Assembly (NCBI GenBank): GCA_046292385.1
Contig: JBKBRF010000007.1
Coordinates: 32,001 to 96,000, forward strand
Direction of reading: 5' to 3'
DNA from: Armatimonadota bacterium
GTDB lineage: Bacteria; Armatimonadota; SYMT01
Length of the DNA stretch: 64,000 nucleotides
The notes below the pieces were generated by a model. The model did no database searches. It had not been told where the DNA came from and was given only the letters and a program-made list of their open reading frames with translations. Position 1 is the first letter of the stretch. Each line of letters starts with the position of its first letter. Position numbers and translations under genes: made by a program. Shown here piece after piece: positions 59,117 to 64,000 of this stretch.

Positions 59117-59842
59117 ATGTTGCCGTTCGCTTCACCCCGTCGGACGGAGCGGCGCCGTCCGTCCGGGTTCACGCTGGTCGAGCTGCTGGTGGTGATCGCC
59201 ATCATCGCGATCCTCGCCGGGCTCCTCTTCCCCGTTCTGGCGCAGGCGCGCGCGAGCGCCCGGAAGTCGACCGCCCTGAGCAACCTCAAGCAGGTCGGCA
59301 CCGCCCTCGCGATCTATACCGCCGACTACGACGACCATCTGCCGAGCCGGTGGCCGATCTGGAACGGATACAGGCCGTTCTTCTGGAGGGTGGACGGCGG
59401 CGATCTTCCCACGCTCCTGAACCCGTACGTCCGGAATCGAGCGGTCTGGTACAGCCCGGAGGACCGCCGGTCGAGCCGCGGCGTGACCAGCTTCATTCTG
59501 AACGCCGAGCTGGCGCCCGGATGGCAGATGTCGAAGATCGGCAGGCCCGCGGAGGCGGTCTACCTCACCGACCGCACCGATCTCGACCTGCTTTCGATCG
59601 GCCCGGACGAGGACCCGCCGGCCGAGTACTTCTGGTGGGAGTTCTGCGACCCGCCGCTCGACCGGGGACCGGCGGACCTCCCGCGTCCGTACGACGACCT
59701 GATGGTGGCGGTCCAGATCTCGCCCCGGCGCTACGTGGGCGATGTCGGCGCCTACCTGTTCGTCGACGGCCACGTCCAGGCGCTGCCGTTCGCGAAGACG
59801 TGGGGTGATGCCTCGACCAACCTGCACTACCCGTTCAAGTAG
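59117..59842 (+). CDS. Prepilin-type N-terminal cleavage/methylation protein (DUF1559, H-X9-DG-like tail)
   Basis: [30 protein letters not shown]...[19 protein letters not shown]. Confidence 0.92.
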
Positions 59843-59872
59843 AAGAGAAGGCCCGTGGAAGAGAGGAATAGT

Positions 59873-60058
59873 ATGATGCGTGTATGGATGCTGAGCGTCG
59901 GGGTGATCCTGCTGGCCGGAACGCTCCTCGGGGCGCTCTCCGGCTGCGGGCATGACCCGAACCACGACATCGACATGGAGCAGGCCCGGAAGGCCGCCGA
60001 CCGGGTCCATCCGCCCCCTCCGCCGGGAGAAAAGAGGATCCCGGGCCACGGCGGATAA
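59873..60058 (+). CDS. Small lipoprotein
   Basis: Lipobox LSGC; Pro-rich tail. Confidence 0.65.
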   Translation: MMRVWMLSVGVILLAGTLLGALSGCGHDPNHDIDMEQARKAADRVHPPPPPGEKRIPGHGG

Positions 60059-60072
60059 CCGCGGAGGAGCCG

Positions 60073-60768
60073 GTGCGTCTATTACTCGTCGAGGATGAAG
60101 CGGCGATCGCCTGCCGGACCCGCGAGAGTCTGGAAGAGGCGCTCTACACGGTCGATTGGGCACGCGACGGCGTCGAGGCGCTGGCGCTGGCCCGGGAGCG
60201 GGAGTATGCCGCCATCATCCTCGACCTGATGCTGCCCGGCGTCGACGGCTGGGAAGTGTGCCAGACGCTCCGGCGGCGCCGCGATCCGACGCCGATCCTG
60301 ATGCTCACCGCCCGCGGCGCGCTGGAGGACCGGATCCGCGGGTTCGAGATCGGCGCGGACGACTACCTGCCCAAGCCGTTCGAGCTGCCGGAGCTGCGGG
60401 TCAGGGTGCGGGCGCTCATCCGCCGCGCGGCGGTCCACCGGACGCGGCTGATCCGGATCGCCGACCTGGAGATCGACACGGAGGCGCGGCGCGTGAGTCG
60501 CTCCGGCCGGGAGATCCCGCTCACGCCGCGGGAGTATTCGCTCCTGGAGGCGCTCGCCCGCAACGAGGGACGGGTGCTCTCGCGCGAGTATATCCAGGAG
60601 CGGGTCTGGCACGACGACGAGAGCTATTCGAACACGATCGCCGTCCGCATCCGGCAGCTCCGGCAGAAGGTGGACGACGGCCACGCCGTCCGCCTGATCC
60701 ACACGGTCTACGGCCAGGGGTACGTGCTCCGGGCGCCCGAAGCGGAGGAGGACCGTCCCCCCGGATGA
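60073..60768 (+). CDS. OmpR/PhoB family response regulator
   Basis: LLVEDE, ILDLMLPG, LTA, GADDYLPKPF, LTPREY.LL, IHTVYGQGY. Confidence 0.96.
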   Translation: MRLLLVEDEAAIACRTRESLEEALYTVDWARDGVEALALAREREYAAIILDLMLPGVDGWEVCQTLRRRRDPTPILMLTARGALEDRIRGFEIGADDYLPKPFELPELRVRVRALIRRAAVHRTRLIRIADLEIDTEARRVSRSGREIPLTPREYSLLEALARNEGRVLSREYIQERVWHDDESYSNTIAVRIRQLRQKVDDGHAVRLIHTVYGQGYVLRAPEAEEDRPPG

Positions 60769-60968
60769 GCGCGCTCGCGCGGACGGCAGGAACTCGGGTG
60801 TCTACCGCTGAACAGAGAGGCACTACTCTAACGGCCAGCCGAAAGTGCGCCAATACCGCGCCCGATTTCGACTGCGCCGGCCTCATCGGGACCTGGTCCG
60901 ACATCGTCTCCACAACGGCGCAGCCGTGGCTATCGTGGAACGGTAGTCCGTGGGAAATAGTACTACGA

Positions 60969-62180
60969 ATGAGCGCTGCCCGCACGTCTTCCCCTCCGGC
61001 GAACCGGACGCTCGCCAACGCGAAAGCGGCCAGGAAGGACGAGTTCTACACCCGGTACTTCGACATCCAAAAGGAGGTCGAGGCCTACCTGGAGTTCGAC
61101 GCCGACACCTTCCGCGGTAAGGTCGTGTATTGCAACTGCGACGACCCATTCGAGAGCAATTTCTTTAAGTACTTCGCCGCTAATTTCAACAAGCTCGGTC
61201 TCAAAAAGCTCGTCACCACCAGCTACGATGGCTCCCCGATCGCCGGGGGGCAGCTCGCTTTGCCGGAGTTCGACGACGGAAACAGTAAGCGAGAAAGACC
61301 CAAGGCAATCGCCGTCGAGATCGAGAATGTGAAGGATGTCACCGGAGACGGCGCAACCGGCATCGAAGACGTCAAGCTCTTCCTAGAGCAGAACCCCCAC
61401 ACCCGCACTCCCCTCGCGGGAGGCGGCGACTTCCGCAGCCCTGAGTGCGTCGAATTGCTCAAGCAGGCGGACATCGTGGTTACTAATCCGCCTTTCTCCC
61501 TCTTCCGGGTGTACGTTGCCCAGCTCGTCGAGCACCGCAAGAAGTTTCTGATCATTGGGAACACGAACGCGATCACCTACTTGGAGATTTTTCCGCTAAT
61601 CAAGAACAACAAGCTTTGGCTCGGGTGCACCAACTTCAATGTTGGTATGTTTTTCGAGGTGCCGGATGACTGGGAGCGCTTTCACCACATAGACAAGGAA
61701 ACCGGGAAGAAAATCGCAAGAGTGTCTACTTCGTGCTGGTACACAAACCTGGATCACGGTCGCCGACACCAGCCTCTTAATCTAATGACCATGGCGGAGA
61801 ATCTTAAGTTCAGTAAAAGTTTGAGAGGGAAGGCGGCGTATGATCGATACGACAATTACGACGCGATAGAGGTCGCAACCTACAAGGAGATCCCAAGCGA
61901 CTATAATGGCGTCATGGGCGTTCCTATTACCTTTCTTGACAAATATAACCCTGACCAATTCGAGATTGTCGGAAACAGCGATGATTCAGGTATGATGCGT
62001 GAGATTGGAGTCCGTCCTCTCGGGCGCGAGTTCATAAATGCATATCGCGCCCGTGGCGGTACTGGACACTACAGTCCGGCCATGCGGATGCTCTGTCTGC
62101 AGGAGCCGCAACCGCGGATAATTTTCAAGCGCATTCTGATTCGGCACCGCACTCCGCCTGTGATGGGAACGGGAAAGTGA
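60969..62180 (+). CDS. Adenine-specific DNA methyltransferase, EcoRI-methylase family
   Basis: AK..RKDEFYT, GKVVYCNCDDP.ESNF, GDFRS.EC, DIVVTNPPFSLFR, MGVPITFLDKYNP.QFEI. Confidence 0.9.
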   Translation: MSAARTSSPPANRTLANAKAARKDEFYTRYFDIQKEVEAYLEFDADTFRGKVVYCNCDDPFESNFFKYFAANFNKLGLKKLVTTSYDGSPIAGGQLALPEFDDGNSKRERPKAIAVEIENVKDVTGDGATGIEDVKLFLEQNPHTRTPLAGGGDFRSPECVELLKQADIVVTNPPFSLFRVYVAQLVEHRKKFLIIGNTNAITYLEIFPLIKNNKLWLGCTNFNVGMFFEVPDDWERFHHIDKETGKKIARVSTSCWYTNLDHGRRHQPLNLMTMAENLKFSKSLRGKAAYDRYDNYDAIEVATYKEIPSDYNGVMGVPITFLDKYNPDQFEIVGNSDDSGMMREIGVRPLGREFINAYRARGGTGHYSPAMRMLCLQEPQPRIIFKRILIRHRTPPVMGTGK

Positions 62181-63343
62181 AGACCACACTGAAAACTGAC
62201 ATCACCGTCGCCAACATATGTGACGGATTTGTCTACAACCAATTGGAAGGCAAAGGTCTGTTTGGGTTGAGCGGAAAACTAACCATTCAGCCGGAATATC
62301 AGCGGAACTACATCTATGCCGAGAGCGGCGGCAAAAGGGAGCAGGCGGTCATCCACTCGCTACTCAATGGGTATCCACTCGGGCTGATCTACTTCAACAA
62401 AGTCGGCGAGGACAAGTACGAGGTGTTGGACGGGCAGCAACGGGTCACCAGTATCGGGCGGTTCGTAACGAACAAGTTCGCGATCATGGACAACGGCCAT
62501 CCAAAGAACTTCGACAGCCTACCCGCCGACCAGCGGGCGAAGATCCTGGCCTCGAGCCTACTGATCTACGAGTGCGAGGGAACCGAAAGTGAGATAAAGG
62601 AGTGGTTCGAGACAATCAACATCGCAGGCGTGCCGCTTAACGACCAGGAACTGTTGAATGCAATCTACTCCGGCCCATTCGTGACCCTTGCGAAGGCCGA
62701 GTTCAGCAACACCCAGAACGCGAACATCCAGAAGTGGAAAGCGTACGTCAAGGGCAGCCCGAACCGGCAAGCGTTCCTTGAGCGGGCGCTGGACTGGGTG
62801 AGCAAGGGCGCTATCGGCAGCTACATGAGCGCGCATCGCAACGATGGCGACATCAATGAGCTGAAGGCCTACTTCAACAGCGTGATCGACTGGGTTTCCG
62901 GCGTGTTTATCGACGTTCTCCCCGAAATGTGCGGGTTGGAGTGGGGGAGATTGTACGAGGAATACCACAGCCAGTCCTACGATCCGAAGAAGATGTCGGA
63001 CGAAGTGAACAGGCTCGTCGCCGACCCCTACGTCATGAACCGCAAAGGCATCTTCGAGTACCTCTTGGGCGGCTCAGTCGATAGTAAGTTGTTGGACGTG
63101 CGCGTATTCGACACTCAAGTTAAGCGGGTGGCCTACGCTAAGCAGACGCAAGCAGCCGAGGCTAAGGGCCAGTCCAATTGCCCGCTCTGCGGGGTTGGGC
63201 ACGACGCTAACAAGGGCAGGATCTACAAGTTCGATGAGATGGACGCCGACCATGTTGCGGCGTGGAGCAAAGGCGGCGCAAGCACGGCCGACAACTGCCA
63301 GATGCTATGCAAGACGCATAACCGCGCCAAGGGCAATCGCTGA
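62177..63343 (+). CDS. DUF262 (ParB/Srx-like) + HNH endonuclease
   Basis: IQPEYQRNY, DGQQR, FETIN..GVPL; C-terminal CPLC...DADH...GG.....NCQMLC..HN..K; GTGA overlap with the methyltransferase. Confidence 0.88.
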   Translation: MKTTLKTDITVANICDGFVYNQLEGKGLFGLSGKLTIQPEYQRNYIYAESGGKREQAVIHSLLNGYPLGLIYFNKVGEDKYEVLDGQQRVTSIGRFVTNKFAIMDNGHPKNFDSLPADQRAKILASSLLIYECEGTESEIKEWFETINIAGVPLNDQELLNAIYSGPFVTLAKAEFSNTQNANIQKWKAYVKGSPNRQAFLERALDWVSKGAIGSYMSAHRNDGDINELKAYFNSVIDWVSGVFIDVLPEMCGLEWGRLYEEYHSQSYDPKKMSDEVNRLVADPYVMNRKGIFEYLLGGSVDSKLLDVRVFDTQVKRVAYAKQTQAAEAKGQSNCPLCGVGHDANKGRIYKFDEMDADHVAAWSKGGASTADNCQMLCKTHNRAKGNR

Positions 63344-63362
63344 CGGCACTATTCGGCTGCGG

Positions 63363-64000
63363 ATGACGCTCTGGAACGTCGCCGTGCTGGCCCTCATCCT
63401 GGGCGCCATGGGCGGCGTGGTGCGATATCGCGTGCAGGCCGACCGGCTGGCGGCGGTCGACCGGACCCTCGCCGAGCGGGCGCACGAGTCGGGACGCCTG
63501 TGGGCGCTCGGCCCTGCCCCTCCCGGGCTCCGCGCCGCCGGCCGACGCAGATTGCTCGACCCGACGCCCGCGGCTGCCGACGGATCGCCCGGCGCCCCCC
63601 GCGCGCTGCCGCCGCTCCCGCCGCGGATCGTCCCTCGCGACCGGGCCGGCAAGGAGCACTGGGATCAGCCCTGGGATCGAGACGCCTTCGCTCGCTGTCT
63701 CGCCGGTCGGACCGTCTATTCCACCGTGTGGGACGGCGGCGTGCCGATGCGGATCCTGTCGATGCCGATCGAGCGCCGGGGCCGGATCGACGAGGTGCTT
63801 CAGCTCGCCTATCCGCTCGGCGGCGTGCTGCGGGAGATCGACGAGCTGACGGCCACGCTCCTGGCCCTGGTGCCTCTCGGGCTGCTCGCCGCCGGGCTGG
63901 GCGGCGCCTTTCTGACCGGCCGCGCGCTCCGTCCGGTACGGGAGATCGCCGCGACCGCCGCGCGCCTGGGGGTGAATGACCTTTCCGAACGGCTGCCGGT
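63363..64000 (+). CDS. Sensor histidine kinase, N-terminal part (runs off the window; original start displaced)
   Basis: (TIRLR)MTLWNVAVLALIL TM1, sensor region, TM2, then GRALRPVREIAATA..L...DLSERLP HAMP start; no stop before 64000. Confidence 0.88.
   Translation, partial: MTLWNVAVLALILGAMGGVVRYRVQADRLAAVDRTLAERAHESGRLWALGPAPPGLRAAGRRRLLDPTPAAADGSPGAPRALPPLPPRIVPRDRAGKEHWDQPWDRDAFARCLAGRTVYSTVWDGGVPMRILSMPIERRGRIDEVLQLAYPLGGVLREIDELTATLLALVPLGLLAAGLGGAFLTGRALRPVREIAATAARLGVNDLSERLP

Follow-up and report, generated by a model that had tools for sequence, protein, structure and literature searches.

The window analysed here is a stretch of 64,000 nucleotides (nt) from an Armatimonadota bacterium (assembly GCA_046292385.1, contig JBKBRF010000007.1; G000:C7:32001-96000), in which a two-gene restriction-modification (R-M) cassette, composed of an EcoRI-family DNA methyltransferase and a DUF262-HNH endonuclease, lies between an OmpR-type response regulator gene and the gene of its cognate histidine kinase. 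The arrangement is very probably the outcome of a recent horizontal acquisition of a mobile Type II R-M cassette, joined between regulator and kinase by recombinase-independent recombination with the loss of at least 61 nt. A preliminary description of this DNA, made from the sequence alone, had proposed that a selfish or defence cassette, horizontally acquired and lacking its own recombinase, sits within the regulator-kinase operon, and composition, protein families, distribution and recombinase searches agree with it on these points; its account of how the insert meets the kinase start is revised below.

An empty site in close relatives

The two flanking genes form a two-component pair of the OmpR family, with a receiver and Trans_reg_C regulator and a HisKA and HATPase_c kinase, and they are separated by a segment of low guanine-plus-cytosine (GC) content at about 60789-63344, whose genes lie in operon orientation. 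In 200-nt windows, GC content is 45-62% within 60800-63399 against 69-80% in the flanks, while third-position GC is 0.70 in the methyltransferase gene and 0.79 in the nuclease gene against 0.91 in the regulator and 0.87 in the kinase. The insert is foreign to the host genome.

Scanning metagenome contigs for the kinase returned 46 loci, 16 of which hold both regulator and kinase, with regulators 78-94% and kinases 58-85% identical to those of the window. No methyltransferase or nuclease match occurs in any of the 46 kinase loci (0/46), and hence the four-gene order of the window is found in none of the 16 two-gene loci (0/16). Since the upstream neighbours (a prepilin-type N_methyl protein, a small protein and the regulator) are kept in 11 metagenome loci, the loci are orthologous; the regulator protein is 88-94% identical to those of the syntenic metagenome loci, and the kinase is 67-86% identical to its orthologues over the whole length or the part held. 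In another 19 regulator-kinase pairs, more distant and drawn from genomes of the phylum, the two genes are always direct neighbours; apart from the window genome, only some relatives with other inserts have this adjacency broken.

The empty site itself was found in soil metagenomic runs. One 530-nt contig of soil run X5 matches 60428-60772 with 0 differences, continues with 70 other letters, and then matches 63354-63468 with 3 differences. Both halves are also present in run X2, from the same study, with matching loose ends that show GTG, AAG, GGA, TTC and ..GGATGGGGCAC. Taken together, the X5 contig and the X2 halves indicate that a near-identical relative has an empty site in which 70 nt join regulator to kinase, which is the comparison by which the preliminary description had proposed to define the insertion. 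Run X3 and other soil runs gave only short parts at lower identity and were not used.

The ancestral junction and what was lost

Orthologues without an inserted gene hold 29-113 nt between the regulator stop and the GGCAC point of the kinase. In most of them AGGAGG is followed, after 4-5 nt, by a GTG or ATG that opens the kinase about 22 codons ahead of MTLWNV, giving N-termini of the pattern ..QGF..H.GR.L..WGTVRLRMTLWNV or ..QGF..RWGTVRLRMTLWNV; homologous kinases do not start at MTLWN. The 70 letters of the X5/X2 relative, read by hand, likewise hold a GTG, placed 18 codons ahead of the point at which identity resumes and 21 ahead of the Met in MTLWNV. In the window, spacer homology runs to GACGGCA (60788) and resumes at GGCAC (63345), with the conserved Trp codon before GGCAC missing. 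Relative to the nearest relative the loss amounts to 61 nt, including the kinase start and 15 codons, and relative to the long-spacer orthologue L026 it amounts to 90 nt. The 70 nt at the nearest empty site and the 29-113 nt of the orthologues therefore imply insertion together with the loss of at least 61 nt, and not the clean insertion into the first codons of the kinase that had been envisaged. The native kinase start is lost.

Copies of GACGGCA flank the insert, as had been noticed earlier; they lie at 60782-60788 and 63342-63348 and nowhere else in 60700-63450, and similarity to other cassettes stops at 63339-63348. Because the left copy belongs to the ancestral spacer and is conserved in L026, L035 and L068, it is not a demonstrated target duplication, and the sequence past the right copy differs from what follows the left copy in relatives. 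Shuffling yields a 7-mer common to both 24-nt junction windows in 2.2% of cases, and 74 of 1541 pairs of host-DNA windows at equal spacing share one, so that the presence of GACGGCA at both junctions is suggestive only (P about 0.02-0.05). The 7-bp repeat may reflect microhomology, or a small duplication followed by deletion. As a candidate insertion target, a conserved hairpin in the ancestral spacer was rejected, since RNAalifold returned compensatory changes in 0/13 pairs and a positive covariation term.

The restriction-modification cassette and its relatives

Both cassette genes are intact. The methyltransferase matches Pfam PF13651 with 430.9 bits against a cut-off of 26.4 and PADLOC MTase_II (PDLC03297, E 1.6e-107) over residues 11-336, and carries the motif NPPF in its translation. 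The nuclease, in which DGQQR and HNH motifs can be read, covers positions 17-371 of the 372 in PADLOC REase_II (PDLC03418, E 2.8e-89); its N-terminus matches PF03235 (GmrSD_N, residues 36-164, 75.6 bits against a cut-off of 33.2), while its C-terminus returned only HNH (PF01844) and HNH_5, and no DUF1524 family, in Pfam at E up to 0.01. The GTG start of the nuclease overlaps the methyltransferase stop by 4 nt (GTGA). With MTase_II and REase_II side by side, both parts of the PADLOC Type II definition are present, and by that definition the cassette is an orthodox-looking example of a widespread mobile Type II R-M pair, with enzymes of predicted function. No solved structure was detectable by sequence for the methyltransferase or the nuclease, and an NCBIfam search gave nothing useful.

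Searching species-representative genomes with the methyltransferase yielded 574 confirmed relatives, the best 80 of which were kept. The nuclease follows directly in 73 of these best 80 loci, which span many phyla; six of the remaining seven loci stop no more than about 200 nt past the methyltransferase match, and the seventh, L094, keeps a 59-nt nuclease remnant. In this locus (L094:6001-7131), from an Opitutaceae metagenome-assembled genome, the methyltransferase is kept at 75% identity while the nuclease gene is reduced to that 3' remnant, which looks like an orphan methyltransferase produced by nuclease deletion. The top cassette DNA match among the best 80 reaches only 79.7% over 2351 nt, which places the donor outside the collection searched, and similarity between cassettes spans only about 61001-63343 of the window. 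Relatives of the nuclease were also found on plasmids (149 matching records, in 43 of which the match extends over at least 80% of the query) and in one Flavobacterium phage.

In 11 cassettes from different phyla (L072, L073, L074, L077, L084, L089, L091, L095, L101, L107 and L150), the nuclease stop is directly followed by about 35 nt of conserved non-coding sequence of the type TA-TGGGCGTGCCACAGCCC.., possibly a terminator or else the 3' terminus of the mobile unit; the window copy lacks it. Among the flanks of 12 other cassette loci, three show hallmarks of mobile elements (integrase, prophage genes, Rep_trans), two hold toxin-antitoxin or TIR genes, and seven hold housekeeping genes only; the R-M pair is thus often naked, as in the window. 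An unrelated sigma-54 regulator and a kinase-type ATPase gene lie about 0.8-3.4 kb downstream of the cassette in L073, on the other strand. Within the host genome, about 11 kb downstream of the cassette (L162:7050-8855; G000:C7:103050-104855), a 602-aa Eco57I/N6_Mtase-type methyltransferase gene with a host-like third-position GC of 0.91 is apparently a second, resident modification gene. The features of the locus are collected in Table 1.

Table 1. Coordinates of the features at the regulator-kinase junction, in window positions
Feature	Position	Strand	Basis
OmpR-type response regulator gene, 231 aa	60073..60768	+	Pfam Response_reg 1.9e-27, Trans_reg_C 1.5e-24; TGA at 60766-60768
ATG overlapping the regulator stop, with the kept remnant of the ancestral regulator-kinase spacer	60765..60788	+	Aligns with orthologue spacers up to GACGGCA
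Leader, 180 nt, of foreign or unassigned origin	60789..60968	+	Open in the frame of ATG 60765
EcoRI-family N6-adenine DNA methyltransferase gene, 403 aa from ATG 60969 (471 aa from ATG 60765)	60969..62180	+	Pfam EcoRI_methylase 5.2e-129
DUF262 (GmrSD_N) and HNH restriction endonuclease gene, 388 aa, GTG start	62177..63343	+	Pfam GmrSD_N 7.3e-21, HNH 2.5e-07
Right junction: second GACGGCA copy, formed by the nuclease stop codon and the first kinase-homologous bases	63342..63348	+	Orthologous-kinase homology from GGCAC (63345)
Histidine kinase gene without native start	63345..64000, onward past the window to a would-be 64754	+	HAMP domain; first ATG past the nuclease stop at 63363

The open leader before the methyltransferase

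The preliminary description had read the ATG at the regulator stop (frame MSALARTAGT...) as the beginning of 68 stop-free codons that lead on to the methyltransferase ATG at 60969. This reading is correct, the other two frames holding 3 and 2 stops, and yet the in-frame link looks non-coding. Stop-free leaders of 60 codons arise in 13.6% of shuffles, before the 1-in-3 odds of the correct frame are counted, and the leader lacks the codon-position GC signature of a gene (0.52/0.63/0.65); on these two grounds the fusion is regarded as incidental, though its translation is possible. Homologous methyltransferases have variable, unrelated N-termini and start at about the same place as ATG 60969. The two starts at 60765 and 60969 share an 8-nt identity, ATGAGCGC, and GGAGGAGG at 60744-60751 stands 13 nt ahead of ATG 60765, a long spacing for a Shine-Dalgarno site.

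The leader (60789-60968) has no match in its own genome, in the 80 cassette loci or in the 46 kinase loci. When 401 genomes of the phylum (G000 included) were searched, leader bases 60838-60923 (86 nt) matched L159:1501-1588 on the minus strand (G299:C7:108540-108627) at 73% identity (E 8.9e-7 for that genome); the match falls in an unannotated stretch, flanked by a prepilin-type gene cluster and by a 433-aa open reading frame (ORF) without a Pfam match, and the alignment of the two copies contains a 2-nt gap. Descent of the leader from the ancestral spacer, with a possible second repeat GGCACTAYTC near 60826, was considered and set aside, local alignment scores lying within those of shuffles for all five orthologues. 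Additionally, ARAGORN found no tRNA in 60000-64000, Rfam returned only a chance snoRNA match in the region (E up to 5), and no sigma-70-like site was found in 59800-64000, where terminator-like sites numbered 4 against 3.0 expected, these last two counts being uninformative for this phylum.

The kinase after the insertion

The kinase ORF remains intact, with its H-box and, beyond the window, HisKA and HATPase_c domains, and the protein is an ordinary HAMP-HisKA-HATPase_c membrane sensor. As had been described, its frame resumes as ..ADGTIRLRMTLWNV with an ATG at 63363. This Met is ancestral, occurs in all orthologues and lies 19 nt past the nuclease stop. The earlier suggestion that the kinase may be rescued from ATG 63363 agrees with the loss of the native start, and this codon, or an in-frame codon further upstream within the nuclease gene, could serve instead. 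Initiation at ATG 63363 would give a protein without about 21 N-terminal residues, including the basic WGT(V/I)RLR stretch ahead of the first membrane helix, and the alternative starts within the nuclease gene would be TTG 63195, ATG 63234 or ATG 63252. Since natural variation in the part of the N-terminus ahead of WGTVRLR is seen among orthologues (L029, L030), some tolerance of such a change is plausible.

Two further kinase genes are worth recording. The same genome holds a paralogous regulator-kinase pair (L002:1300-1560; G000:C70) in which the GTGA overlap is kept, and the kinase N-terminus reads (M)KWRSFGVRLTLWNV, its DNA being 88% identical to window 63360-63401. In L035:912-1643, an orthologous kinase lacks query residues 34-269 between two matched pieces 10 nt apart, which is either a deletion allele or an assembly artefact.

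A recurrent insertion site between regulator and kinase

The 16 orthologous two-gene loci differ widely in what lies between the two genes. The gap is 29-113 nt in seven loci, 235 nt in L056, and 529 nt in L034, where no family was found. It measures 560-561 nt in L041, L042 and L054, each with a VOC/glyoxalase gene; 1098 nt in L043, with a RibD_C gene; 1572 nt in L038, with a 216-aa ORF of no assigned family and a VOC gene; 1689 nt in L025, with a Peptidase_S11 gene of lower GC; and 2876 nt in L039, with a VOC gene, an ankyrin protein, and a PIN and HTH_17 pair of the PIN toxin-antitoxin kind. The regulator-kinase junction, as newly recognised here, is a recurrent insertion site that has received at least five other cargo sets in relatives. 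Most of the inserted genes are co-oriented with the operon, and the left breakpoints differ between loci, so that there is no fixed attachment site. Some of the occupied states may be inherited rather than independent, because kin do not count as independent cases.

Among species-representative genomes, the best orthologue is G004, with a kinase 79% identical and a VOC gene upstream of it. On this 2635-nt contig (G004:C790; L006:1950-2400, minus strand), the end of the VOC gene and about 350 nt stand ahead of the kinase in place of the regulator, and a short frame in that stretch, judged by eye, resembles the C-terminus of an rve-type transposase. In L044, too, a VOC gene is the immediate upstream neighbour of the kinase, on a contig where no regulator was seen. 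In the genome under study (L162:1424-1894; G000:C7:97424-97894) and in L043 (L043:4146-4616), a VOC/glyoxalase gene follows the kinase and YCII on their downstream side; its relatives, with identities of 65-85%, are placed between the two genes of the pair in L038, L039 (2129-2599), L041 (4352-4822), L042, L044, L054 and G004. Judged from these positions, the VOC gene has changed sides of the kinase within the clade.

Recurrent and co-oriented occupancy invites a further proposal, which we consider rather unlikely, namely that the junction of this planctomycete-type operon is a standing 'cargo slot', where unrelated accessory genes would be captured repeatedly at a short, indel-prone spacer and expressed in a signal-controlled, autoregulated operon. 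If this held, the signal of the sensor kinase would switch restriction and methylation, and the kinase would depend on translation through a selfish cassette.

How the cassette was joined, and alternative histories

Illegitimate recombination would place the cassette in the short regulator-kinase spacer in operon orientation, and the same event, or a deletion soon after, would remove at least 61 nt, including the ribosome-binding site of the kinase, its GTG start and its first 15 codons. The cassette would then be transcribed from the operon promoter, with the methyltransferase presumably translated from its own ATG 60969; termination-reinitiation at ATG 60765 after the regulator might additionally produce a methyltransferase with a 68-residue junk extension. 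A takeover of the operon's transcription and translational coupling by the cassette, as proposed earlier, is thus possible. The cassette would be expected to methylate host DNA and cut unmethylated incoming DNA, and would be hard to lose, as loss would expose the chromosome to the remaining nuclease; post-segregational killing of this kind is described as established for some Type II systems in the review PMC12707154.

No mobility apparatus accompanies the insert. It holds two genes only, neither of them a transposase or integrase, and Pfam assigned a recombinase family to 0/15 flanking ORFs between -14 kb and +12 kb, in agreement with the preliminary description. On the contig, the nearest PF00589 match is about 82 kb away, and no PF00665 (rve) match occurs. 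No convincing terminal inverted repeats were found, the only near-end arms (27 nt, 70% complementary) lying in host sequence.

Several points weigh against recombinase-independent insertion with loss of the kinase start. The joining mechanism is inferred from the absence of recombinase signatures, and the flanking ORFs checked for these had been pre-filtered to at least 110 aa and third-position GC of at least 0.80, 15 of the 30 listed being scanned. Genome-wide, only these two recombinase families, PF00589 and PF00665, were searched. As for the junctions, run X1 is probably the source of the assembly itself, so that agreement with it amounts to a second assembler on the same reads and not to independent data, and contigs show neither local read depth nor rare variants; no empty-site variant was seen among those of X1. 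The X5 contig with the empty site derives from a different sample, and its spacer is a variant of its own, without the 16 nt (60773-60788) that are common to the window and more distant orthologues; the sequence before insertion was therefore not exactly this one, and the estimate of the loss, 61-90 nt, depends on the relative chosen. Finally, among the listed runs that hold this stretch, none is on record as RNA.

The order of events may also have been different. In a two-step history, which is possible, if on the unlikely side, the cassette entered the spacer at GACGGCA, duplicating a 7-bp target and sparing the kinase, and slippage between ..CGGCA and ..GGGCA later removed the 3' flank of the cassette, the ribosome-binding site, the GTG and 15 codons, bringing ATG 63363 near the nuclease stop. 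Such a history fits the exact position of GACGGCA at both junctions, with its ancestral left copy, as well as the missing 3' stretch of the related cassettes, which later trimming would explain, and the indel-prone spacer of relatives, whose gaps range so widely. A donor that already carried ..TGACGGCA past the nuclease stop, on the other hand, would turn the repeat into microhomology. No intermediate form was found, neither a transposase nor inverted repeats are at hand to create a duplication, and double illegitimate recombination at microhomologies explains the same sequence in one step.

The exact model of the preliminary description is quite improbable. It took ATG 60765 as the native, translationally coupled kinase start (MSALARTAGTIRLR...), interrupted by a clean insertion. 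The regulator TGA does overlap this ATG, as described; distant homologues often have their regulator stop and kinase start overlapping as ATGA/GTGA, as L029 does; and an ATG at the regulator stop leads through an open frame into the kinase in 4 of the 9 loci examined (L026, L029, L030, L036) and in the X5/X2 relative. However, that frame is stopped after 16 codons in two loci (L040, L068) and is out of frame in three (L052, L056, L069), and so variable a codon is not a conserved kinase start. The conserved start, AGGAGG with GTG or ATG opening QGF.., lies downstream of the regulator-stop ATG, and ATG 60765 is accordingly not borne out as the native start. The model furthermore needs zero extra nt, whereas every empty site holds the spacer described above (70 nt in the nearest relative), and it leaves the missing Trp codon against it. 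The frame arithmetic given for both hypothetical excisions was correct when translated by hand, but a join at GG(A/C)ACT would not restore the ancestral protein, since MSALARTAGTIRLR.. is not the ancestral N-terminus.

An assembly chimera, in which a cassette from another organism was misjoined into the contig, is very improbable. The genome is metagenome-derived, the insert differs in composition, and the evidence comes from contigs rather than raw reads, all of which might favour it. In run X1, however, another assembler spans both junctions in one contig of 3671 nt (depth 84.5) that covers 60400-63800 with 0 differences. Moreover, the site lies midway in a 187-kb contig, the missing kinase start fits a real rearrangement, and, as the flanks are two halves of one syntenic operon, a chimera would need two precise misjoins 2.6 kb apart.

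That the four genes form one ancestral unit, an R-M system under its own two-component pair in the manner of phosphorelay-linked R-M-like defence cassettes, is scarcely credible, for although they are co-oriented and tightly spaced, the regulator-kinase pair lacks the cassette in 16/16 orthologous and 19 distant loci, no two-component pair lies directly beside the cassette in 12/12 flank-scanned loci, the contrast in composition between cassette and flanks is sharp, and the kinase is of an ordinary type.

Comparison with known systems

As a Type II pair, the cassette agrees with the combination of PF13651/MTase_II and DUF262-HNH REase_II over the full length of both proteins, in gene order and in the overlap of methyltransferase stop and nuclease start. 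It differs from other Type II copies in lacking the conserved 3' flank, in its unique 180-nt leader and in its position inside a two-component operon. The DUF262 nucleases GmrSD, BrxU and SspE, which are described in PMC12707154 as Type IV, modification-dependent enzymes, share with the window nuclease an N-terminal DUF262 with DGQQR and a C-terminal nuclease of the His-Me type. In contrast to the GmrSD family, the window nuclease ends in HNH (PF01844), returned no DUF1524, and belongs to a gene that is nearly always paired with a methyltransferase. The presence of a partner methyltransferase and the lack of DUF1524 indicate that it is not a member of the GmrSD Type IV family, and the near-constant pairing implies an enzyme that leaves methylated DNA alone instead of attacking it.

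The operon itself resembles those of the OmpR/EnvZ class with a coupled kinase start, with the same receiver and winged-helix regulator and a transmembrane-HAMP-HisKA-HATPase_c kinase, the kinase start of relatives overlapping the regulator or lying close to it. Unlike these operons, the window pair is parted by 2.6 kb of foreign genes, and its kinase is without the start type of its own lineage. The conserved linkage to kinase and receiver genes that marks phosphorelay-linked R-M-like cassettes is missing here (0/16 loci, 0/12 cassette flanks). Knowledge of the individual parts is unchanged by this case; what it adds is an unusually well-documented natural case of a selfish R-M cassette in an operon, for which a near-identical relative supplies the empty site, the junctions are known exactly and the loss of the downstream start is defined. 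The host pays for the insertion with a sensor kinase left without its own start, and post-segregational killing may hold the insertion in place.

The closest precedents are the R-M insertions without recombinases that were recognised against empty sites in related genomes, with repeats that often span translation starts or stops, and that include one Type II R-M system inserted into an operon-like structure, as reported by Furuta et al. (2010, PMC2853133). The cases given there mostly show long target duplications and an intact target gene, whereas the window shows a 7-bp repeat only, at least 61 nt lost and a downstream gene without its start. It also differs from them in that its site is used recurrently by other cargo. 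With at least six gene contents at one junction across relatives, the locus is tractable for studying how accessory genes enter operons without recombinases, and is equally suited to asking whether defence genes can come under two-component control.

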